From the NCBI GenBank assembly GCA_039586365.1, contig JBDHKN010000075.1, forward strand, positions 1 through 27,927: 27,927 bases of DNA, written 5' to 3'. The notes below the pieces were generated by a model that did not search any database, was not told the DNA's origin, and saw only the letters and a list, made by a program, of their open reading frames with translations. The position numbers and the translations under genes are program-made. The stretch comes from Gemmatimonadota bacterium. GTDB taxonomy: Bacteria; Gemmatimonadota; Gemmatimonadetes; Gemmatimonadales; GWC2-71-9. Below, piece by piece: positions 1 to 9,024 of the stretch; positions within the stretch are counted from its first letter, which is position 1; each line of letters begins with the position of its first letter.

Positions 1-368
1 GCGATCAGCGAGTCTCTGGCATCTGCGTATGCCTGCTCCAATTCCGCAGCGGAGTAATAGAGGGTATCCTCGCTCCCCTCAATCATGTTCATTATCTCCG
101 GCCACCAATGAAGCTCTGTGCTGAGCCGCCAGACGCTGCCCTGACCATCTATATACCAACCCCAGCTCTGATGGCCCCAAGCAAAGTTCTCATAGGATAC
201 GTGAAAGAGAACTTCCTGGGAGATCTCTGCGGCTGACGCCGGCGCGCCGTTCTTCACAAAGTGGGACGCGAGTTCGCCACATCCAGCCGCGACATCCCCC
301 ACCGGTTGCACACTTCGATCACTGACTGTAATCAGCCCGGAACAGACTGCCCTCGATCGTCTGTTCAA
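1..368 (-). CDS. Partial hypothetical protein, probably exported (runs off the left edge; absent from the ORF track because its stop lies outside the window)
   Basis: Hand translation of the minus frame is open from a TGA at 482-480 to position 1: ...EISQEVLFHVSYENFAWGHQSWGWYIDGQGSVWRLSTELHWWPEIMNMIEGSEDTLYYSAAELEQAYADARDSLI. The YxNxAWGxQxxGWxID segment is protein-like and resembles uncharacterised FCB-group exported proteins (from memory). The TTG start at 368 is a guess. Confidence 0.65.
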   Translation of the reverse strand, partial: MNRRSRAVCSGLITVSDRSVQPVGDVAAGCGELASHFVKNGAPASAAEISQEVLFHVSYENFAWGHQSWGWYIDGQGSVWRLSTELHWWPEIMNMIEGSEDTLYYSAAELEQAYADARDSLI

Positions 369-494
369 CGTGCTGGGGCTGGAGATCGTCGTCGAGGCTG
401 GAACCGGCTCAGAGGCGGCGTATGAGGTTGCGCTGGAGTGTCCCAAGGGTACCGTATTGCTCAAGTGATGCGGCGCCGCTCACTGACGGCAGCC

Positions 495-608
495 GTGTGA
501 CGGCGCACCAAGCTACCAGGTGTGGGGTGTTCGTTTTCTTGACCGCCGTCGGAGAGATCGATGGAGCGGTGAGATCGAGTTGCCAGGCAGCTGGTGCCCA
601 GGTTAGGC
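495..608 (+). repeat. attC-like site 1 (degenerate R'')
   Basis: GTGTGAC-ggcGCACCAAGCTaccagg ... ccaggcAGCTGGTGCccag-GTTAGGC. The arms pair with one extrahelical base and R' is a perfect GTTRRRY. Confidence 0.7.
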
Positions 609-650
609 AAAGGTCCGCTGGATAACGCACGCCGCGAGGGGGAAACGAGC

Positions 651-1157
651 ATGGACAATCTGCGACTTCGTGAGATCCTCAATCTTCTCGACCCGCCCGC
701 GGGCAGGCGCTTGTGGTACGGCGGGGCCAGGGTCGCCGGTTGTGTTCGGGGTGTCACGCCCGAGCAGGCCGCATGGCAGCCGGCTTCCAAGCGGCACTCC
801 ATCTGGGAGCTGACGCTACATCTAGCGTATTGGAAGTACGCGGTGCGCCGGAACCTCGAGGCCTTGCCGCAGGGAACGTTTCCCCGATCGCCGGCGAATT
901 GGCCAGCCGTACCCAAGCCGGCGGGTGCGCCGCAATGGAAAGCCGATTGCGCGTTGCTGCGCTCGGAGCACTTGCTGCTGGTGGAGGCGGTGCGGGCGTT
1001 TGATCCGCGGCGACTGGATGAGGCGGCGCCGGGCAGCGGGAACTTCCGATTCGTTGACCTCTTGTTCGGTATTGTGAGTCATGACCTCTATCATGTTGGC
1101 CAGATTCAGGTCTTGAAGCGCTTGTACCACAATCGGCGCCGCCTCACAGGTGCATGA
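651..1157 (+). CDS. DinB/YfiT-family putative metalloenzyme (DinB_2)
   Basis: AAWQP..RHSIWELTLHLAYWK and SHDLYHVGQI His-triad pattern. The ATG at 651 is preceded by GAGGGGG; the track's GTG start at 594 lies inside attC site 1. Confidence 0.85.
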   Translation: MDNLRLREILNLLDPPAGRRLWYGGARVAGCVRGVTPEQAAWQPASKRHSIWELTLHLAYWKYAVRRNLEALPQGTFPRSPANWPAVPKPAGAPQWKADCALLRSEHLLLVEAVRAFDPRRLDEAAPGSGNFRFVDLLFGIVSHDLYHVGQIQVLKRLYHNRRRLTGA

Positions 1158-1269
1158 GGGTGAGAGCGCGGTAGTAGCGGTCGGTTTGTGTGCATGGTGG
1201 AGCTAATGGGAACCGAGACATTGGCTCTGGTGGCTGGAAGCGCGCAGCTCATGGGCCGAGTCGTTAAGC
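1141..1269 (+). repeat. attC-like site 2
   Basis: GCCTCAC-aggtgCATGAGggtgagaGCGCG ... GCGCGcagCTCATGggccgagtc-GTTAAGC. R' is consensus; in R'' AAC has become CAC. Confidence 0.75.
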
Positions 1270-1284
1270 CGCAGCGGGTATAGC

Positions 1285-1883
1285 ATGATACTGAATCGTG
1301 TCGAGTACATCCTCATGAACAACCCGATTCGTGCGGCTGTCCAGCGTTTCGTCGAAGTGCGTCGCCTCCTGCGTTTGGGTGGTGCCCTGGACGGCGGAGC
1401 TGCGCTTGAGATCGGGTGCGGACGAGGTGTGGGGGCGCAACTGGTTCTGGGCCACTTTGGCGTCGCCTCACTGGATGCGTTTGATCTCGATCCCCGCATG
1501 GTCCGTCGGGCTCGTGCCCGCTCAGAGAACTGGGGCAATCGGGTTCGGTTGTGGATGGGTGACGCCGCAGCCATCGCAGCGGCGGATGCAACCTACGACG
1601 CGGTATTCGACTTTGGGATCCTCCACCATGTTCCTCAGTGGCGAGTAGCACTGGCGGAAGTGTCGCGGGTTCTCAAACCGGGGGGGCGGTTCTTTGCTGA
1701 GGAAGTGCTGAGGCCGTTCATTCAGCTTGCGGTGAGTAGGCTGCTGTTTGATCACCACAGAGTGAGCGGTTTGACGCCGTGGAGTTTCAGGCTGGAATGA
1801 GGGAAGTCGGACTTCAACCGGTGGGTTGTGAGGAGCTCTGGGGCGTGATCGCATGGTTTGTTGCTGATAAGATTGCCGCCTAG
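1285..1883 (+). pseudogene. Class I SAM-dependent methyltransferase with a 1-nt frameshift near 1755 (true pseudogene or sequencing indel)
   Basis: Motifs LEIGCGRG, DAFDLDP, YDAVFDFGILHHV, VLKPGGRF. As written it ends at 1800 in HHRVSGLTPWSFRLE. Adding one C to CACCAC gives DHPQSERFDAVEFQAGMREVGLQPVGCEELWGVIAWFVADKIAA*, with the TAG (1881-1883) inside the R'' box of the next attC. Confidence 0.8.
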
Positions 1884-1968
1884 CAGGCGGATGAAGTGTG
1901 CAGACGCTGTTGGAGGATCGGCGAACACCCTTCTGGATTGGTCATAGTATGCCGTAAGAGCGTTGGTG
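1878..1968 (+). repeat. attC-like site 3 (strongly degenerate)
   Basis: The left arm GCCTAGC-aggcggATGAAGtgtgc aligns with the other sites. The right arm tagtatgccgtaagagc-GTTGGTG pairs poorly. Confidence 0.55.
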
Positions 1969-2002
1969 ATATACTGACAACGAGCAAGACCGAGGTGACA
2001 CC

Positions 2003-2575
2003 ATGGAGAGAAGAGTCATCACCACTGGACTAATGGCCGGGCTCGTCGTTGTCGGATGGACATCGGTATCATACGGCCTAGTGCGCATTCGCGATGAACT
2101 TGGCTACAAGGAGGTCTCCCACGAGGAGACTGTCCTGGCTGTGTTGGACACCAACCTTACAGAGACTGGCCTCTACCTTGTCCCGGGTCATAGCCCGCCA
2201 GATTCATTGTTCAGAGCACGGTACGCTGAGGGTCCGCTGTTTAGGGTCCATTCTCTTAGGAGTGGAGCTGGAGGGGCACTTCACGTCATCCTGCCGATCC
2301 TCGCATTGATTGCCGCGCCGATCATCCCGACGTGGCTGGTGTGGAATCTCTGCCAACGTGGAGGACCCAGATTCGGGGTGCGCGTCGTCATTGTGGCGCT
2401 CTTCGGCGTGTTCGTGGCGCTCACGACCGACCTGCGGCTGTGGGGAATGGAACTGTACCCTCTTAGCTACACGCTGTTGCTTGCCTTCGGCAGCGTGACC
2501 ACCTGGATCCTTGCTGGTCTGGTCGTTGCCTGGAGAATCAAGCCGTTGGTTGACCGTCCGCCCGAATCGCTATAG
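2003..2575 (+). CDS. Hypothetical integral membrane protein (about 4 TM segments, one large loop)
   Basis: GAGGTG RBS before the ATG; hydrophobic segments at the N-terminus and in the C-terminal half; loop EETVLAVLDTNLTETGLYLVPG. Confidence 0.8.
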   Translation: MERRVITTGLMAGLVVVGWTSVSYGLVRIRDELGYKEVSHEETVLAVLDTNLTETGLYLVPGHSPPDSLFRARYAEGPLFRVHSLRSGAGGALHVILPILALIAAPIIPTWLVWNLCQRGGPRFGVRVVIVALFGVFVALTTDLRLWGMELYPLSYTLLLAFGSVTTWILAGLVVAWRIKPLVDRPPESL

Positions 2576-2608
2576 TCGGCTTCCAAGGTGCAAGGAACTG
2601 GTCCACGA

Positions 2609-3295
2609 ATGAGACCGCACGTCGTGATACACAGCCAAGTCAGTCTCGACGGTCGCATGGATTGGCTCCGGATCGACCCGGGACTGTACTACGAGCTAGC
2701 AGCGCGCTGGAAGGAAGACGCGACTCTGGCCGGTAGTGATACGTTGCTGGCTGCGGTTGCCCAATTCGCGGAGGAACCTTCAGAACAAGACACCTCAGCG
2801 ACCGGCCGGAGCGGTCCTCTGCTGGTGGTGCCGGATAGTCGCGGGAGGTTGAAGCATTGGGAGGCACTGCTGTCAGCTCGGTACTGGAGGGGCGGTCTCG
2901 CGCTGTGCACCAAGGTCACGCCGAAGAGACACTTGGAGTATTTGGACGAGGTTGGAGTGGAGTCACTGATGGTTGGTGATGACCGAGTCGACCTTTATGA
3001 GGCTCTCGAGTGCCTGTCGGGTCGTTACGGCACCAAGACCGTCCGGGTCGATAGCGGTGGAACTCTGAACGGCGTTCTGTTGCGAAACGGTTTGGTCGAC
3101 GAGGTGAGCGTGTTGATCAGCCCGTGTCTTGTAGGGGGAGTAACGCCAAAGACACTGTTTCGCGCACCTGACCTGACCGAGGTAGCCGATGTGATCGGCC
3201 TGCGGTTGATCGGTCTCGAGAAGCTTCAGGATGATGTGGCGTGGCTGAGGTACAGTGTACTCCACAACAAAGTCAGTGAGGAAGATAGCCGATGA
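2609..3295 (+). CDS. RibD C-terminal domain (pyrimidine reductase / DHFR-fold) protein
   Basis: MRPHVVIHSQVSLDGR, LLVVPDSRGR, VRVDSGGTLNGVLLRNGLVDEVSVLISPCLVGG. Stand-alone reductase domain with no deaminase. ATG at 2609 preferred over GTG at 2588. Confidence 0.85.
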   Translation: MRPHVVIHSQVSLDGRMDWLRIDPGLYYELAARWKEDATLAGSDTLLAAVAQFAEEPSEQDTSATGRSGPLLVVPDSRGRLKHWEALLSARYWRGGLALCTKVTPKRHLEYLDEVGVESLMVGDDRVDLYEALECLSGRYGTKTVRVDSGGTLNGVLLRNGLVDEVSVLISPCLVGGVTPKTLFRAPDLTEVADVIGLRLIGLEKLQDDVAWLRYSVLHNKVSEEDSR

Positions 3296-3567
3296 CTTGC
3301 ATGCTGTGCCGCAATCGAGTTGTGGACTTTGTACAGTGGAAGACCATGTTTGCCTCTCACTCAGCGGCCCACCAAGCCGCCGGCCTTCAGCTCGTCAATG
3401 TCTGGCGCAGCGTTGAGGAACCCAACAACGTTTTCTTCATGTTCGAGGTTGCCAGCCTAGAGAAGGCCCGGGAGTTCGTCAGTAATCCCGAGGCCGCCAG
3501 AGCTGGAGAAGCTTCGGGTGTGGTCGATGGCGAGTATCATTTCATCGAAGCTGCGGGGAGTTACTGA
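3292..3567 (+). CDS. Small hypothetical protein, probable dimeric alpha/beta-barrel fold
   Basis: 91 aa; ATGA overlap with the upstream stop; GAGG RBS; pattern VxDFxxWKxxF...AGL...VWRSVEEPNNVFFMFEV...AREF. Confidence 0.75.
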   Translation: MTCMLCRNRVVDFVQWKTMFASHSAAHQAAGLQLVNVWRSVEEPNNVFFMFEVASLEKAREFVSNPEAARAGEASGVVDGEYHFIEAAGSY

Positions 3568-3569
3568 AT

Positions 3570-3628
3570 GCCGAACCATGGCGTGCGGCTGCCGGTCATT
3601 TGTGCCGCATCTGACGCCGAGGTTGCCA
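3570..3628 (+). repeat. attC-like site 4 (59 bp, AAC and GTT cores intact)
   Basis: GCCGAAC-catGGCGT[g]CGGCTGC[c]GGTca-tt-tgtGCCGCATCTGACGCCgag-GTTGCCA. The arms pair with extrahelical G and C. It starts 3 nt after the upstream stop codon. Confidence 0.75.
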
Positions 3629-3704
3629 CACCGGCACCCGATGGGCTCTTGAAGCCTCACTGACGTTTCGAAATGCAAGCGGCGAGTTCCGGCGAAACTG
3701 CGAA

Positions 3705-3825
3705 GTCGAGCAGAGGCTCTTGCAGGGCCGGGTGACCGAGCGCCTGAGATTGATTCGAGAGAGCGAGAGAGAACTGCTGTCCTGACATGGTTCGCGCTCG
3801 CAGCCTATTGCCAGAGTCGTGATGC
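3705..3825 (+). repeat. attC-like site 5 (right arm clear, left boundary uncertain)
   Basis: GGGTG[ac]CGAGCGC (3730-3743) pairs with GCGCTCGCAGCC (3794-3805). The right end gagtc-GTGATGC parallels gagtc-GTTAAGC of site 2, with GTT changed to GTG. Confidence 0.55.
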
Positions 3826-3851
3826 AGCCTTCCAGAATTGAGGGGTGATCC

Positions 3852-4235
3852 ATGGATCCCGGCGAACAACGCTCCCTTATCGACCGTTACCTCGTAGCCT
3901 ACAACGCCCGCGACATCGACGGGATGATGGCGACGATTCACCCTGACGTTCAGTTCAAGAACGTCTCTGGCGGCGAGGTCAACGCTACAGCTTCGGGCGC
4001 GGACGAGTTCCGCCAGTTGGCCGAGCAGTCGAAAGGATTGTTCTCATCGCGGGAGCAAACGGTGAGGGCGTTCGAATCAGATGGGGACAAGGCGGTCGTT
4101 GAGGTGGGGTACGAGGCCGTATTGGCCGTGGACCTGCCGAACGGCATGAAGGCGGGGGAAACACTGCGACTCGACGGGCGCTCGGAGTTCGTCTTTCGGG
4201 ACGGGAGGATCTACCAACTTGCGGACTACAGCTGA
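3852..4235 (+). CDS. SnoaL-like / NTF2-fold protein
   Basis: LIDRYLVAYNARDIDGMMATIHPDVQF...G.SEFVFRDGRIYQLADYS; GAGGGG RBS. Confidence 0.85.
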   Translation: MDPGEQRSLIDRYLVAYNARDIDGMMATIHPDVQFKNVSGGEVNATASGADEFRQLAEQSKGLFSSREQTVRAFESDGDKAVVEVGYEAVLAVDLPNGMKAGETLRLDGRSEFVFRDGRIYQLADYS

Positions 4236-4251
4236 TAGCAGCGGTATGGCC

Positions 4252-4300
4252 GCATGACAGGGGCATGAGCCTGTCGGACACCCAGTGCCCGTTGTTGGGC
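4252..4300 (+). repeat. attC-like site 6 (short, probably internally deleted)
   Basis: GCATGAC-agGGGCATgagcctgtcggacacccaGTGCCCgtt-GTTGGGC. R' is consensus and the left arm aligns with the other sites; only 49 bp. Confidence 0.6.
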
Positions 4301-4326
4301 GGGCCTGACGAGTTTGACTGAGAGAG

Positions 4327-4809
4327 ATGCTTGTGTTCGTTCTCATACGTGCGGTCACCTACGCTACGCTTTTCATCGGCCTGGTGCTGGTGTTCCTGCC
4401 GGCGCAGGTATTGTCTGGGGCGGGCATCCACCAGCCCGCAGTGTTCGGAATGCCGCAGGTCAGCGGGATGATGATCGCAGCGACGGGTGCAGTCGTAGCG
4501 TTATGGTGCATACTGGTGTTTGCCCTCGTCGGCAAGGGTACCCCCGCACCGTTCGACCCACCGCGTCGGTTGGTTGTTCGGGGGCCTTACCGCCACGTCC
4601 GGAACCCAATGTACCTTGGTGCGGGCCTCGCGCTCGCCGGAGCTGCACTCTACTATCAGTCGTTCGAGCTGCTTGGCTATACGGGTGTATTTTTCGTCTT
4701 CGCGCACCTATTTGTGGTGTTGTATGAGGAACCGACTTTGAGACGCAGCTTTGGAGCGGAGTACACCGCGTACTGCCAAACGGTGCGCCGGTGGTGGCCG
4801 AGACCATGA
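4327..4809 (+). CDS. Isoprenylcysteine carboxyl methyltransferase / PEMT-family membrane protein
   Basis: GKGTPAPFDPPRRLVVRGPYRHVRNPMYLG and YEEPTLRRSFGAEYTAYCQTVRRWWP family motifs; several TM helices. Confidence 0.9.
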   Translation: MLVFVLIRAVTYATLFIGLVLVFLPAQVLSGAGIHQPAVFGMPQVSGMMIAATGAVVALWCILVFALVGKGTPAPFDPPRRLVVRGPYRHVRNPMYLGAGLALAGAALYYQSFELLGYTGVFFVFAHLFVVLYEEPTLRRSFGAEYTAYCQTVRRWWPRP

Positions 4810-4840
4810 GCTAGCCTGCTCCATCCTGTAGAGCAAACTC

Positions 4841-5619
4841 TTGAAACAGCAACGAACGCCTGAGGTCACGCTGGAGAAGGTCGGCCCCGACAACCTACCG
4901 GATTGCGGTATCGGCTGCATCAGGAATCCGAAGCACGAAGGCTTTGAACCTAAGGTCGAGTGGCTGCAACAGCGTTTCGCCGAAGGCCTGCGATTCCTGC
5001 TCTTCCGTGACGGAAAGGGCAAGCCTCTTGCATTCCTCGAATGCGTGCCGGGCGAATTCGCTTGGCGGCCCGTGGACGCCGCAGGCTGGCTGTTTGTCCA
5101 TTGCCTGTGGGTCTACCCCCCAGGGCAAGCGGTGGGCGGGTTGGGGAGCCGTTTGATCCAGGCATGCCTAGAGGAGGCGCGACGGGCGGGCGCCAGAGGC
5201 GTCGCAGCCATGGTGAGTGAGGGTCCCTGGATGGCAGCGAAGCAAGTGTTTCTTAGGAATGGTTTCGCTGAAATTGCGGAGAGCGACCGCTTCCAGTTGA
5301 TCATTCACAGGCTTGGGAAAGGGCCGGAGCCACGCTTCCGCAACATAAGCAAGAAGTGGGCAAAGCAACGGGGGCTGCACATCGTGTCATGGCGGGCGAA
5401 CACGGCCTGGAAGTCAAGGTCACGGTGCTGCGCAGCGCCCGCGCAGCGCAACACGCGCCTTCCTACTACGGTGTCTTCAATCTCCTGTGGAACGGGCGGC
5501 TGCTGTCAGATCATTACGTCAGTAAAGGACGCTTCAGGAACATGCTGAAGAAAGAGATCCTGGGGGCCAATGTCAGCTCGAGACGAACAGACAATCTGCG
5601 TGGTCATTGTGACCGTTGA
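4841..5619 (+). pseudogene. GNAT-family / YoaP-domain protein disrupted by a frameshifting internal deletion near 5387
   Basis: The first frame gives the GNAT part (FLECVPGEFAWRPV, WLFVHCLWV, GLGSRLIQACLEEA) up to GLHIV. A second frame resumes at 5389 with MAGEHGLEVKVTVL..AQHAPSYYGVFNLLWNGRLLSDHYVS (YoaP-like). The YxxQCP-helix segment that normally links them is missing. Confidence 0.8.
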
Positions 5620-5908
5620 CGCGAACACCGAGACCATCGGTGAGGTCACAGCTCACGCACAGTACGGTCTGAAGCGCTTTGCGGAGTTTGATGGCTTCAT
5701 TTGTGGCGTTCTACACAGGCACGCCAACGGCACGCGCATCGTGCAGTATCTTCGCTGGCAATCTGAGGCGGATCATCTCGCCTGCATGAACCATCCACTG
5801 TGGGATGATGTCCCATCCTCCCGGCGCTTCTTGGGCCTCGTGAACTCCGGCCAGATCCGCGTGGACGTTGGTGTGTACGACGTCATTGCTGAGCAATACC
5901 CTGACTGA
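5570..5908 (+). CDS. Antibiotic biosynthesis monooxygenase (ABM)-like protein
   Basis: FDGFICGVLHRHANGTRIVQYLRWQSEADH fits the ABM GFxxxxLHxxxDGxxVVNYAQWES pattern; 112 aa. Confidence 0.75.
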   Translation: MSARDEQTICVVIVTVDANTETIGEVTAHAQYGLKRFAEFDGFICGVLHRHANGTRIVQYLRWQSEADHLACMNHPLWDDVPSSRRFLGLVNSGQIRVDVGVYDVIAEQYPD

Positions 5909-5915
5909 TGCAGCT

Positions 5916-6012
5916 GCCTGGCAAGCTGCCGAAGCTTTCGGTCTGCTGCGTGGTATCCCTGGCCTGCTGCCATTACGGCGGCCGGCTACACCTAGCGGCA
6001 ATAGTGTGAGGC
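5916..6012 (+). repeat. attC-like site 7 (both cores mutated)
   Basis: GCCTGGC-aagcTGCCGaagctttcggtc ... ggctacacctagCGGCAatagt-GTGAGGC. The outer GCCT/AGGC and TGCCG/CGGCA still pair. It starts 8 nt after the ABM stop. Confidence 0.6.
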
Positions 6013-6046
6013 AGATCTCAGCTCCGATCGTTGGTCACAGAAGACT

Positions 6047-7114
6047 ATGAGCCTTGCTGCATATGGCTGGAATGAGGCGTGGGCAGGGCGTCTGGCGGCA
6101 GCTGACTGCGGTCGAGGCATGGCAGCGCGAGTGCTTGCAGAACATCGCGAGCTGTATCGAGTTCACACGGGTGCCACGGAGCTGCCGGCCTGGATTTCCG
6201 GTCGACTCCGCCATGATGCTTCGAGTGTTGCAGACCTCCCCGCCGTTGGTGATTGGGTGGTGATGGAGCACGGTGGTGCGTGCGACGCCGCTCTTATTCA
6301 CTGTGTCCTGCCACGCATGTCGACGTTTTCTCGGAAGGCAGCCGGGAAGCGAACTGATGAGCAGATTGTCGGGGCCAACGTTGACACCGTGTGGATCGTA
6401 TCCGCCTTTGACTCTGATCTGAACCCAGCCCGACTCGAGAGGTATGTCACCCTGGTTTGGGAGAGCGGAGCGTCTCCCGTTGTGGTGGTTGCCAAAGCCG
6501 ACCTCTCCGAAGCGCCGGAGTCGATCGTTGCGGGTCTGACTGCACGAGTAGTTGGGGTTCCCATCCATGCGGTGAGCGCCATTGATGGTGCCGGTCTTGA
6601 GGTGCTTCGCCGATACCTGGCGCCCGGTCAGACGATTGCCTTGCTCGGGTCATCTGGTGTCGGCAAGTCGACCCTAATCAACCGCCTTGCTGGACACGAG
6701 GTCATGCGGACGGTATCGGTTCGCGCGAGCGATGGTAAGGGACGTCATACGACGACACACCGGCAGCTGGTGCTTCTCCCATCTGGTGGACTGCTACTGG
6801 ATACGCCCGGCATGCGTGAGCTCCAGCTTTGGAGTTCCGATGAGGGACTCGAGAAGAGCTTCCCGGATATCGATGCAATCGCTGCTGGATGTCGGTTTGC
6901 AGACTGCCGTCACGAGTCCGAACCGGGATGTGCAGTCCACGCGGCTGTTGAGAGTGGCGAACTCGCTCCAGGGCGTCTTGAGAACTTCAGAAAACTCACG
7001 AGGGAGCTGGCCTATTTCGAGCGGAAGCGGGACGTGCGAGCAGAACTTGAGGAGAAGCAGCGCTGGAAGGAGTTGACCAAGGAGTATCGGCGCAGGTTCA
7101 AGGGCCGGAAATAA
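6047..7114 (+). CDS. rsgA: Ribosome small subunit-dependent GTPase A (circularly permuted GTPase), long paralog type
   Basis: OB-fold PAVGDWV; G4 AKAD, G5 VSA, G1 GSSGVGKS, G2 GRHTTT, G3 DTPG in permuted order; Zn finger CRFADCRHESEPGC. Confidence 0.95.
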   Translation: MSLAAYGWNEAWAGRLAAADCGRGMAARVLAEHRELYRVHTGATELPAWISGRLRHDASSVADLPAVGDWVVMEHGGACDAALIHCVLPRMSTFSRKAAGKRTDEQIVGANVDTVWIVSAFDSDLNPARLERYVTLVWESGASPVVVVAKADLSEAPESIVAGLTARVVGVPIHAVSAIDGAGLEVLRRYLAPGQTIALLGSSGVGKSTLINRLAGHEVMRTVSVRASDGKGRHTTTHRQLVLLPSGGLLLDTPGMRELQLWSSDEGLEKSFPDIDAIAAGCRFADCRHESEPGCAVHAAVESGELAPGRLENFRKLTRELAYFERKRDVRAELEEKQRWKELTKEYRRRFKGRK

Positions 7115-7119
7115 GATCC

Positions 7120-7256
7120 GCCTAACGAGTGGATGAGACTGACGAACACATGATTGGACAGGCAGGTCGTTGGTAGATGTGCATGTTCATGGCAAGTTGA
7201 CAAATCCCACCGCCGGATAGCGGCGAGGGGGCTCCATACCCCACGGAGCGTTATAT
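7120..7256 (+). repeat. attC-like site 8 (last in the array; AAC and GTT cores intact)
   Basis: GCCTAAC (perfect RYYYAAC, 6 nt after the rsgA stop)-gaGTGGATGagactgacg ... cCATAccCCACggagc-GTTATAT; 137 bp. Confidence 0.7.
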
Positions 7257-7275
7257 TGGCTCCTCTATGTGTTAT

Positions 7276-8541
7276 ATGATCGCCGTTCGTCGCGTGAGCC
7301 ATACTGTGGTTGCCCTATTGGCGCTACATGGCGCGTACGTGCCGACACACGCTCAGAGGCCAGACTCGGCCTCCGTCCGTGAGATCGAGGTGTACCTGGT
7401 CACATACGGCCCAGGCCGGCTGTACTGGGAGCGCTTCGGGCACAACGCGATATGGATTCGTGATCCCGCGAGACACATCGATCACATGTTCAACTACGGG
7501 ATCTTCGACTTCAATCAAGAGAGCTTTTTGCTCCGGTTCATCCAGGGCCGCATGCTCTACATGCTGGCCACGCAGGATCCGCAGCGGTCGTTTGAGGGGT
7601 ACGTGGCGAACAATCGCTCGGTTTGGATTCAAGAACTCAACCTGACCGAGACACAACGTACCGCACTCAGGGATTTCCTGCTGTGGAACTCGGTGCCGGA
7701 GAACCGTGACTACCGCTACGACTATTACCTCGACAACTGTTCCACCAGGGTGCGCGACGCTATAGACCAGGCCATTGGCGGTAGAATCCGAGCGCAGACG
7801 GAGACCACGCAAACGAACACGACCTTCCGCTATCACACCCAGCGTCTCACCACCGCCAACGTGCCGCTCTATACCGGCCTGCTGGCTGGGCTGGGTAGCC
7901 CCGTGGATCGACCAATCAGCGTTTGGGAAGAGATGTTCATTCCAATGTTGCTACGCGATCACCTGCGTGACGTCACAACGTTAGACGAGAACGGCAACGA
8001 GGTACCCCTGGTGGTGTCGGAGGCGCTGTACTACGAAAGCACTGCTGAGCCGCCGTTGGATGCGCCACCGCGCTGGCTCATCTGGTACTTGGCCGCCGGC
8101 GTTGCGGTGGCGGCGTTGCTGGTCGTTCTCGGGAAGACCGCAGGCAATGCCGCACGGTTCATATTGGCTCTATTAACCAGTGCGTGGACGCTGCTTGTGG
8201 GGTTCGCCGGTGTGGTCCTGGCGGGACTGTGGTTGGGGACCGACCACGCAACGTCGTACTGGAACGAGAACCTGTTCTGCCTGACGCCCATAGCGCTGCC
8301 GTTGGCTATTCTCCTGCCGTTGGCGGTGCACGGTGTTGGATGGGTGCTACGGCCTGCTCAATGGCTTGCCGCTGCAGTAGCGGTGTCGTCGCTGCTCGGC
8401 TGGGTGGCCCAAATCCTGCCGGCATTCGACCAAGTGAACGGACAGCTCATTGCACTGGTATTACCAGTGAATGTGGCGGTGGGGTTGGTGGTGTTGGGAG
8501 AGCGGAGAGCGGAGAGCGGAGAGCCGGGAGCCGGGAGCTGA
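7276..8541 (+). CDS. DUF4105 membrane protein, Lnb-type lipoprotein N-acyltransferase-like
   Basis: Signal peptide, LVTYGPG..YWERFGHNAIWI, FNYGIFDF, YRYDYYLDNCSTRVRD (His/Cys catalytic pattern), then about 5 C-terminal TM helices. Start uncertain (7267, 7276 or a later GTG). Confidence 0.85.
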   Translation: MIAVRRVSHTVVALLALHGAYVPTHAQRPDSASVREIEVYLVTYGPGRLYWERFGHNAIWIRDPARHIDHMFNYGIFDFNQESFLLRFIQGRMLYMLATQDPQRSFEGYVANNRSVWIQELNLTETQRTALRDFLLWNSVPENRDYRYDYYLDNCSTRVRDAIDQAIGGRIRAQTETTQTNTTFRYHTQRLTTANVPLYTGLLAGLGSPVDRPISVWEEMFIPMLLRDHLRDVTTLDENGNEVPLVVSEALYYESTAEPPLDAPPRWLIWYLAAGVAVAALLVVLGKTAGNAARFILALLTSAWTLLVGFAGVVLAGLWLGTDHATSYWNENLFCLTPIALPLAILLPLAVHGVGWVLRPAQWLAAAVAVSSLLGWVAQILPAFDQVNGQLIALVLPVNVAVGLVVLGERRAESGEPGAGS

Positions 8542-8616
8542 GAGCCGAGGGTTGAGAGCGCTATCACTGATGACCGCTCCCCGCTCTCCGCTCCCTTCGC
8601 TGGCTCCCCGATCCCC
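8498..8616. repeat. Heptamer tandem repeats arranged as an inverted pair
   Basis: Nine G(A/G)GAGC(G/C/T)-like units at 8498-8560, a 14-nt spacer, then complementary CGCTC(C/T)C units at 8575-8595 and degenerate ones to 8616. Overlaps the 3' end of the DUF4105 gene. Confidence 0.9.
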
Positions 8617-8629
8617 ACTAACAAAAGCG

Positions 8630-8654
8630 TTGCTGACACATAGATTGTAAGCAA
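8630..8654. promoter_or_regulatory. Candidate operator palindrome
   Basis: TTGCTGACA-N7-TGTAAGCAA (8 of 9 positions complementary), AT-rich, ending 4 nt before the ATG at 8659. Confidence 0.35.
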
Positions 8655-8658
8655 TACC

Positions 8659-9024
8659 ATGACTGAGCAAAGTACGAGTTCAGCGTCCGGTATCGCACGG
8701 TTTCTTGTCGATCTTCGCTCCTACAGCGAGCGGCGATCGTGGCAGGACAGGCGTGGCCAGGCCCAAATCGTCCCTGTGGAACGTCGCAGCGGCGTCGACC
8801 GCCGTATGCAGACGGACCGACGACGGCGTTGGCTGAGCAATTACTCTCCCGAAGCCAGCGTCCGGATCCACAGAATGGTGTCCCATCCGACGGCGCGGGT
8901 AGCGTGCCCGGAGTGCGATGGGGCATTGATGCTCGGTCCTCCAGTCGATCGTGGCGGTGTCAGGGTCCGCCGGGTCCACTGCACTTCGTGCCGGCTGAGC
9001 ACGGAGGTCAGGAACCTGGGCTGA
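8659..9024 (+). CDS. Small hypothetical protein: tandem (E/D)RR repeats plus C-terminal Zn ribbon
   Basis: ERRSWQDRR, ERRSGVDRRMQTDRRRR; CPEC...CTSC. No clear RBS. Confidence 0.75.
   Translation: MTEQSTSSASGIARFLVDLRSYSERRSWQDRRGQAQIVPVERRSGVDRRMQTDRRRRWLSNYSPEASVRIHRMVSHPTARVACPECDGALMLGPPVDRGGVRVRRVHCTSCRLSTEVRNLG

Follow-up and report, generated by a model that had tools for sequence, protein, structure and literature searches.

The window analysed here is the entire contig C124 (JBDHKN010000075.1, 27,927 nt) of a Gemmatimonadota assembly (GCA_039586365.1; 5.44 Mb in 132 contigs, 86% complete). Eleven plus-strand genes or gene relics occupy positions 239-7114 at its left end, in the order glyoxalase-like fragment, DinB_2, S-adenosylmethionine (SAM) methyltransferase, 190-aa hypothetical protein, RibD_C, 91-aa hypothetical protein (hyp91), SnoaL, PEMT-like, GNAT-YoaP, ABM-like and a second RsgA (RsgA2); 3' of them follow an Lnb-like gene, a zinc-ribbon open reading frame (ORF), glutamate dehydrogenase (gdhA) and ppk2. 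Eight degenerate sites set among these genes derive from attC, the recombination site of integron cassettes; several of the genes are of cassette ancestry, and cores, arms and whole sites have been lost. We regard the block, with good though not full confidence, as the fossil of a CALIN (attC sites clustered without an integron integrase), in which eight attC relics persist, two or three further sites have been deleted with fusion of their cassettes, and most genes likely remained under selection.

An earlier note, made from the letters of this DNA alone, had proposed an attC origin for the sites, and this was borne out by an independent profile, by alignment to real attC sites and by placement at gene ends. 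The seven left arms it listed were all found at the positions and with the letters given, as was the right arm ending at 3825. Position-weight arm profiles, trained on 53 canonical attC sites that a heuristic finder had picked out in integrons of relatives and including no window sequence, placed the left arms at 7120, 3570, 1878 and 4252 as the four best on the plus strand of the 27.9-kb window (those at 1141 and 5916 ranked 7-8), and the two best right arms ended at 1269 and 3825. Seven of the eleven array gene ends scored as attC left arms (p 0.0007-0.027, with 4,359 further gene ends from the genome, crudely called, as background) and four gave no left-arm signal in this test; Fisher's combined p over the eleven ends, which were picked after the region had been seen, was 5e-10. 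We further aligned the sites locally to 110 canonical attC sites, with 300 random genomic segments as the null (maximum score 42.5). Sites 2, 5, 6 and 4 exceeded this maximum (85.5, 59.5, 55.0 and 43.0), sites 1, 3 and 8 were borderline (37-40.5; p 0.02-0.04), and the alignment of site 7 was not significant (33). Sites 2, 5 and 6 have loop sequence in common with real attC sites. Six of the seven left arms begin within 17 nt of a stop codon, as had been described, provided that the original stop, at 1883, is taken as the end of the methyltransferase; that of site 1 lies 27 nt past the stop at 468. The arm and loop homology is located at the 3' ends of co-oriented ORFs, in sites of mixed type and length (59-137 nt).

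The state of each relic is given in Table 1. From left to right the left cores read GAC, CAC, AGC, AAC, GAC, GGC and AAC, five of the seven AAC cores being mutated, while the right core GTT is retained except at site 5 (GTG) and at site 6, which has no right arm. Among the complementary right arms assigned in the earlier note, those of sites 3 and 7 are weak (4/7 and 5/7 L-box pairs), and the GTTGGGC at 4294-4300, taken for the right arm of site 6, actually belongs to the internal loop: a 132-nt attC of genome G002 matches 4252-4324 over its first 80 nt, and the true right arm is deleted. At site 2 the DinB_2 stop lies five codons into the relic, whose R'' reads GCCTCAC, the usual stop-bearing form being GCCTAAC. 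Only sites 4 and 8 keep both AAC and GTT, compared with 22 of 22 sites in an intact array on contig C13. The probability of the recombinogenic bottom-strand fold serves as a proxy for attC activity. Site 8, despite its intact cores, is predicted at about 1e-5; site 4 reaches 0.03, site 1 0.02 and the rest at most 4e-4, where the 22 C13 sites have a median of 0.6. Site 4 is thus predicted to be the only one with plausible residual activity, and the array sites are probably dead or nearly so, at most one being able to recombine. The broken cores, lost arms and low predicted fold probabilities support the proposal that the cassettes have been immobilised.

The earlier note also thought that standard attC models might miss such an array, and this was the case with our own covariance model R1 (built from 42 canonical sites and distinct from the IntegronFinder model). 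The R1 genome search, in which 150 of 2,484 candidates were scored, gave 42-75 bits for 21 of the 22 C13 sites. In the window, site 2 obtained 13.0 bits (E 0.17), site 8 7.2 and site 4 5.9, none of them significant, and the other sites gave nothing at E<=10, apart from a 6.5-bit match on the opposite strand overlapping site 6. The best R1 match in the window was a palindrome at 8497-8609, 3' of the Lnb-like gene, which resembles a repetitive extragenic palindromic (REP) element, is unrelated to attC and has look-alikes on C61, C27, C84, C51, C50, C92 and C4; an Rfam scan returned only chance miRNA-like matches, at this same palindrome.

Conserved attC positions are about 28% mutated in the window, against a baseline of about 8%. 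We considered whether the AAC cores had been inactivated in a targeted manner and rejected this candidate. Among the left arms, 6 of 21 core positions and 21 of 77 other conserved positions were off consensus (Fisher p 1.0), and since cores are mutated as often as the other positions, there is no sign of targeted locking. In 19 C13 sites, chosen for an intact core, 0 of 57 core and 17 of 209 other conserved positions were changed.

Cassette cargo, as the genes had been described, is supported by homologues of RsgA2, RibD, SnoaL and the methyltransferase that adjoin attC sites elsewhere. In the same-genus genome G003 the RsgA2 homologue is flanked by an intact attC site on each side, and in G002 it belongs to an array that has partly decayed; this RsgA paralogue, a ribosome-biogenesis GTPase, travels as an integron cassette in this genus. 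RibD homologues have attC upstream in four of eight metagenome loci and an attC-like site downstream in two. A search of 250 genomes of the class found no SnoaL homologue at E<=1e-20, and a DNA search found one copy, in the one-contig, same-genus genome G006, where a 129-nt degenerate attC follows the gene. The attC of the methyltransferase in locus L137 begins 6 nt ahead of the stop codon's end, as it does in the window's original frame, and in L156 an R1 match lies just 3' of the gene.

Several gene junctions in the array show partial or complete loss of attC between complete ORFs. Identity of 85% to metagenome locus L218 begins at window position 2573, inside GTTAGCC, the R' core of an intact attC in that locus. 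Since this core corresponds to the stop of the 190-aa gene (2573-2575), the attC that separated that gene from RibD is gone; in G237 an attC-like left arm follows the homologue of the 190-aa protein. Contigs from runs X3 and X4 that are 86% alike continue from RibD into an attC left arm, whereas in the window RibD overlaps the next gene by ATGA. A further R' remnant probably survives at 4810-4816, although the case is weaker because no full attC scores there, and no direct evidence of a lost site was found at the GNAT|ABM junction. The fusions comprise total loss at hyp190|RibD and RibD|hyp91, partial loss at SnoaL|PEMT and probable loss at PEMT|GNAT. By these comparisons, two or three further attC sites have been deleted entirely, fusing the neighbouring cassettes.

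One variant seems to capture a deletion of this kind. A contig of run X1 joins position 1159 to 1896, with 109 and 144 identical letters flanking the joint, and X1 has no cover over most of the skipped stretch; run X4 reads through 1159 and run X3 through 1896. Integrase excision cuts attC at G|TT and would here skip 1264-1962. The observed joint is not at G|TT but about 19 nt into the left arms of relics 2 and 3, in near-register and overlapping by 3 nt, the outcome that slippage between repeats, or a microhomology deletion between them, would give and an integrase crossover would not. Being a single contig, it is a lead and not proof.

Table 1. Features of the decayed cassette array and its borders (window coordinates; bits refer to model R1)
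Feature	Position	Strand	Remarks
Inverted cassette-gene copy, 5' part without start	1..238	-	blastn window 7-238 vs C13 18489-18258, 86% identity; runs on into C44; marks rearranged left edge
Glyoxalase/VOC-like 3' remnant, 5'-truncated	239..468	+	Frame open to TGA 466-468; Pfam Glyoxalase_3 weak (E 0.079); tentative label
attC relic 1	495..608	+	Core GAC/GTT, broken; L box 7/7; predicted fold probability 0.02
DinB_2 cassette gene	651..1157	+	Pfam; homologues 75-84% identical in other genera and families
attC relic 2	1141..1269	+	Core CAC/GTT; end-to-end homology with attC of same-genus G003; 13 bits
Stretch skipped in run X1 (736 nt), loss of methyltransferase cassette	1160..1895	.	One contig, one of four runs
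Class I SAM methyltransferase, frameshift near 1755	1285..1883	+	Stop of original frame is TAG within R'' of relic 3
attC relic 3	1878..1968	+	Core AGC/GTT; left arm clear; right arm doubtful, L box 4/7
190-aa membrane-type protein, no Pfam family	2003..2575	+	Own attC missing
Remnant R' core of deleted attC	2571..2577	+	Coincides with stop TAG (2573-2575) of upstream 190-aa gene
RibD_C reductase cassette gene	2609..3295	+	Pfam; own attC deleted; stop overlaps next start (ATGA)
91-aa hypothetical protein (hyp91)	3292..3567	+	Homologues in 4 of 250 class genomes
attC relic 4, 59 nt	3570..3628	+	AAC/GTT intact; L box 5-6/7; fold probability 0.03; like 60-nt attC of G033
attC relic 5	3738..3825	+	Loop and right arm, core GTG; left arm unrecognisable; aligns with 3' part of G003 attC (59.5)
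SnoaL-like cassette gene	3852..4235	+	Pfam; 79%-identical copy in G006
attC relic 6	4252..4324	+	Left arm (core GAC) and half of loop; right arm deleted
PEMT / isoprenylcysteine methyltransferase-like gene	4327..4809	+	
Probable R' remnant GCTAGCC of another deleted attC	4810..4816	+	Aligns with GTTGGCC upstream of G003 homologue
GNAT-YoaP gene, broken	4841..5619	+	49-nt deletion near 5388 with frameshift; stop at 5548
ABM-like gene	5570..5908	+	Pfam ABM E 0.007, under cut-off; homologues in 3 of 250 class genomes
attC relic 7, most decayed	5916..6036	+	Core GGC/GTT; right arm weak (5/7 L-box pairs); gene-end p 0.006
Second RsgA GTPase (RsgA2), cassette gene	6047..7114	+	Core RsgA copy on C125
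attC relic 8	7120..7256	+	AAC/GTT intact; left arm good; L box poorly paired
Lnb-like gene at array border	7267..8541	+	No attC 3' of gene; left out of cassette count

Most ORFs had been described as intact, and eight of the eleven are indeed open; the other three are a 5'-truncated glyoxalase-like gene, a frameshifted methyltransferase and a GNAT-YoaP gene with a 49-nt deletion. Most of 75 methyltransferase homologues match the window only to about residue 157, and the shifted frame matches their C-termini. None of the eight intact ORFs carries a nonsense substitution. In neutral simulations (400 runs each), an average of 0.9 of the eight ORFs stayed open at 20% substitution (maximum 4) and 2.3 at 10% (maximum 6). 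Nonsynonymous/synonymous ratios on the window branch were 0.03-0.23 for six genes, and pairwise ratios were 0.25 for hyp91 and 0.15 for SnoaL. The low ratios and the absence of nonsense substitutions, set against the mutation level of the attC positions, support the idea that genes were kept while the sites decayed. The ratios do not date selection relative to attC decay, because the branches are long and conserved codons are favoured, so that the claim of selection during decay rests mainly on the absence of stops. With this in mind, most genes likely stayed under purifying selection while their sites decayed.

The left edge of the array does not lead to an integron. The first 114 nt of the window are an exact overlap with the left neighbour, contig C44 (reversed); the same 114-nt overlap links many other contig pairs. 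C44 carries a two-component pair, a beta-propeller protein, an erythromycin-esterase-like gene and a peptidase, and over 15 kb to the left of the array no intI, attC or recombinase was found. Directly after the inverted cassette gene, at C44:386-490 (L067), lies a fragment of a Mg-chelatase-family gene, presumably comM-like, that is 83% identical to C97:186222-186326 and is possibly an integration scar. The left edge of the array accordingly reads as a rearrangement scar. No intI was found to the right within the window, and in the 86%-complete assembly no protein exceeded the TIGR02249 cut-off, a PF00589 search found no IntI, and tblastn with IntI of three relatives gave no IntI-like match beyond Xer-like recombinases. 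The intI that the earlier note had expected to the left is thus absent from those 15 kb, and its reading as the distal end of a sedentary chromosomal integron was not supported, the left neighbour holding 15 kb of unrelated genes beyond a rearranged edge; no intI, attI or cassette promoter Pc adjoins the array. The alternative of that note, a CALIN, fits the absence of intI near the array, in the window and in the assembly.

Other attC sites are present in the genome. Strong genome-wide matches are confined to C13 (22 co-oriented), C9 (4), C52 (1) and C59 (1), with one orientation per cluster. The intact array of 22 sites (C13:565-19668; L068) fills its whole contig, which contains no intI. 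The C9 cluster (46866-48597, minus strand; L070) comprises four half-decayed sites with DinB and GNAT cassettes, its GNAT being 93% identical to a GNAT in the G002 array. The remaining two resemble a SALIN (one attC site by itself, without an integron integrase) and lie at C52:2357-2489 and C59:67956-68089; the former is 84% identical to the attC downstream of the G003 intI.

Among 40 relatives, intI is present in 21, including two of seven in the genus. In 13 of the 21 relatives' intI loci (L007-L058), attC arrays are found on the 3' side of intI and share its strand, and the usual divergent array was seen in none of 18 intI loci with an upstream flank; the G003 intI also has same-strand attC upstream. 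This 'inverted integrase' layout was named, in the available excerpt of PMC4889954, for Treponema and one Acinetobacter integron, and no description of it in this lineage was found in an open-access literature search. The 23 attC matches of G006 are spread over about ten places, and the 40 kb upstream and 32 kb downstream of its intI contain none of them; DinB, SnoaL and gdhA have their G006 homologues at 1.12, 1.51 and 4.91 Mb. Gene order, which the earlier note wished to see compared, is kept in no relative examined, none of them sharing even two adjacent array genes in this order, and no attC was called upstream of the zinc-ribbon/gdhA genes in six same-genus loci (four with short flanks). 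The locus is thus neither conserved in relatives nor built of homogeneous attC sites, as a sedentary integron would be. A search for the Lnb-like gene found it in 0 of 7 same-genus genomes (63-94% complete) and in 16 of the 33 relatives further away; for the zinc-ribbon ORF at 8659, no helpful name came from the ESM Atlas.

In G001, G003 and G005 the zinc-ribbon gene has a tRNA-Ser close by on its upstream side, and here the tRNA is on C22, where a tRNA-Ser(TGA), a gene and a truncated 93% copy (5' fragment) of the window's DinB follow one another (C22:17419-18704; L127). Judging from this proximity, the array may have been relocated through recombination between copies of DinB. In G024 the homologue of the middle gene of this C22 stretch is directly upstream of GNAT-YoaP and DinB. 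These two are adjacent on G024:C11 (L089 / L121) with no attC call, DinB ending in a bare R''-like heptamer; the pair is possibly an end-stage domesticated cluster.

We propose that an IntI assembled the array, either in an integron or at some secondary site, and that a rearrangement, with its scar at 238, then severed it from its 5' part. Without access to an integrase the attC sites would have drifted neutrally, and deletion within or between attC repeats, likely by replication slippage or driven by microhomology, would remove sites and sometimes whole cassettes. Useful genes would stay open and become ordinary chromosomal genes, others being lost. The 'fixed operon-like block' of the earlier note holds only in part: three of eleven genes are broken, the X1 variant lacks the methyltransferase cassette, and the order is absent from the relatives examined. 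The block may be operon-like, co-transcription being a prediction; a promoter and terminator scan did not rise above shuffles, with one promoter-like site in 1-8700, outside the array, against 2.4 expected by chance.

A number of observations weigh against this proposal. The genome being 86% complete, intI may be unassembled. Of the three broken genes, one is cut at 238 and the two frameshifts are read from the assembly and not from raw reads. Neutral simulation at 5% substitution leaves 4.1 of the eight ORFs open; the RsgA ratio is 0.47 and saturated, and all ratios take in the full length of the branch leading to distant homologues (dS about 0.5 or more), over codons conserved in two outgroups. 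Most homologues of the array genes are not cassettes: only three of 74 methyltransferase homologues score above the 99th background percentile for a left arm at the stop, none of 29 DinB homologue loci has an attC call, and no clear attC was present at the ends of those PEMT, hyp91 and ABM homologues that were seen. The X1 joint has a depth of 3.8 on its one contig.

Plain decay, in which the integrase was lost, sites and genes alike drift and the genes look intact only because decay is recent, would account for the broken genes, the X1 variant short of one cassette, the lack of conserved order and the absence of a promoter-like site within the array. We consider it unlikely, since attC positions have reached about 28% mutation without a nonsense substitution in any gene, and the ATGA overlap and the stop/R' fusion leave both neighbouring ORFs whole. 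Alternatively, decay could have come first, while the sites were internal junctions of multi-gene cassettes in other hosts or at other loci, and the block, already fused, been imported as one or a few units by IntI (through an outer attC) or as an island. Homologues of DinB, GNAT-YoaP and hyp91 co-occur without attC calls in G024 and G198 (74-82% DNA identity, other orders), the SnoaL attC of G006 is likewise degenerate, and the comM-like fragment and broken tRNA-Ser linkage indicate an island-type rearrangement; but all eight sites are similarly decayed, the outermost included, and the lack of any shared adjacent pair in the relatives examined also makes such an import improbable.

The reading as the far end of a sedentary chromosomal integron, with intI and its young cassettes (the C13 array, for instance) situated to the left, gains something from the intact 22-site array on C13, from the frequency of intI in relatives and from window 1-238 being a copy of a C13 cassette gene. 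That copy is inverted and truncated, however, no end overlap between C13 and the window was found, and the exact overlap with C44 contradicts this reading already unless the join is a misassembly, so that it appears very unlikely. REP-like dispersal, which the earlier note had named as grounds for abandoning its proposal, was not seen. A REP-like intergenic repeat or chance matches might be suspected from the individual weakness of sites 1, 3, 7 and 8 and from the failure of R1 to find any site significant; yet the sites share one strand and all stand at gene ends, loop sequence in sites 2, 5 and 6 is common to real attC sites, and strong matches occur on four contigs only, co-oriented per cluster. 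This explanation is refuted for sites 2, 4, 5 and 6, survives for site 7 alone, and has almost no chance of accounting for the array.

The fossil CALIN favoured here shares with CALINs, as described in the available excerpt of PMC4889954, several co-oriented attC-derived sites, each 3' of a gene, with no intI nearby, and an origin by rearrangement, intI loss or secondary insertion. CALINs are defined there by covariance-detectable sites and may be mobilised in trans, whereas here no site was significant with R1. Fused class 1 cassettes such as blaGES-1/aacA4 (Fonseca and Vicente, PMC4670013, in the part available) likewise show attC loss that leaves ORFs whole as an operon-like unit, the truncated site not being excised; those are rare single fusions in clinical mobile integrons, in contrast to two to three total losses and eight decayed sites in a chromosomal environmental array. 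Work on SALINs and attG sites (bioRxiv 10.1101/2022.09.11.507474, excerpt) also concerns cassettes outside integrons and suggests domestication by slippage deletion of folded attC; R' of the last window site starts with GTT, which fits the GWT consensus given there but also any attC. That study is an experimental single-cassette insertion with, in the excerpt, one sentence on domestication, unlike the natural multi-cassette relic with successive stages seen here. In Xanthomonas, the accessible portion of bioRxiv 10.1101/2025.06.18.660453 describes frozen arrays with inactivated intI, in which integrase loss stabilises arrays and CALINs occur at separate loci; their attC sites are IntegronFinder-detectable and their loci conserved across species, neither of which was seen here. 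Integrons are already recorded for Gemmatimonadota, according to the available text of PMC8618304, and an open-access literature search listed no paper whose subject was degenerate attC arrays or the integrons found in this phylum.

The concepts of CALINs and fused cassettes are known, and the locus reveals no new mechanism or protein function; as a natural example it is unusually complete. That cassettes are domesticated through attC loss has been suggested in the literature and, in the excerpts available, shown mainly as single clinical fusions. Here a natural series is found of point-mutated, half-deleted and fully deleted sites, with genes kept, broken or lost in a variant, implying that model-based surveys undercount integron-derived genes. 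It is conceivable, though we hold this only tentatively, that integron decay is a routine route of gene acquisition in this lineage, through scattered arrays, neutral attC erosion, integrase-independent deletion and attC-free operon-like clusters as in G024; that the genome holds the whole series, from the intact C13 array through the half-decayed C9 cluster to the fossil on C124, is a possibility we would put no higher. If decay does serve acquisition in this way, a considerable share of the accessory genome would descend from integrons without being visible to attC models. The locus likely illustrates how mobile cassettes settle into ordinary chromosomal genes.

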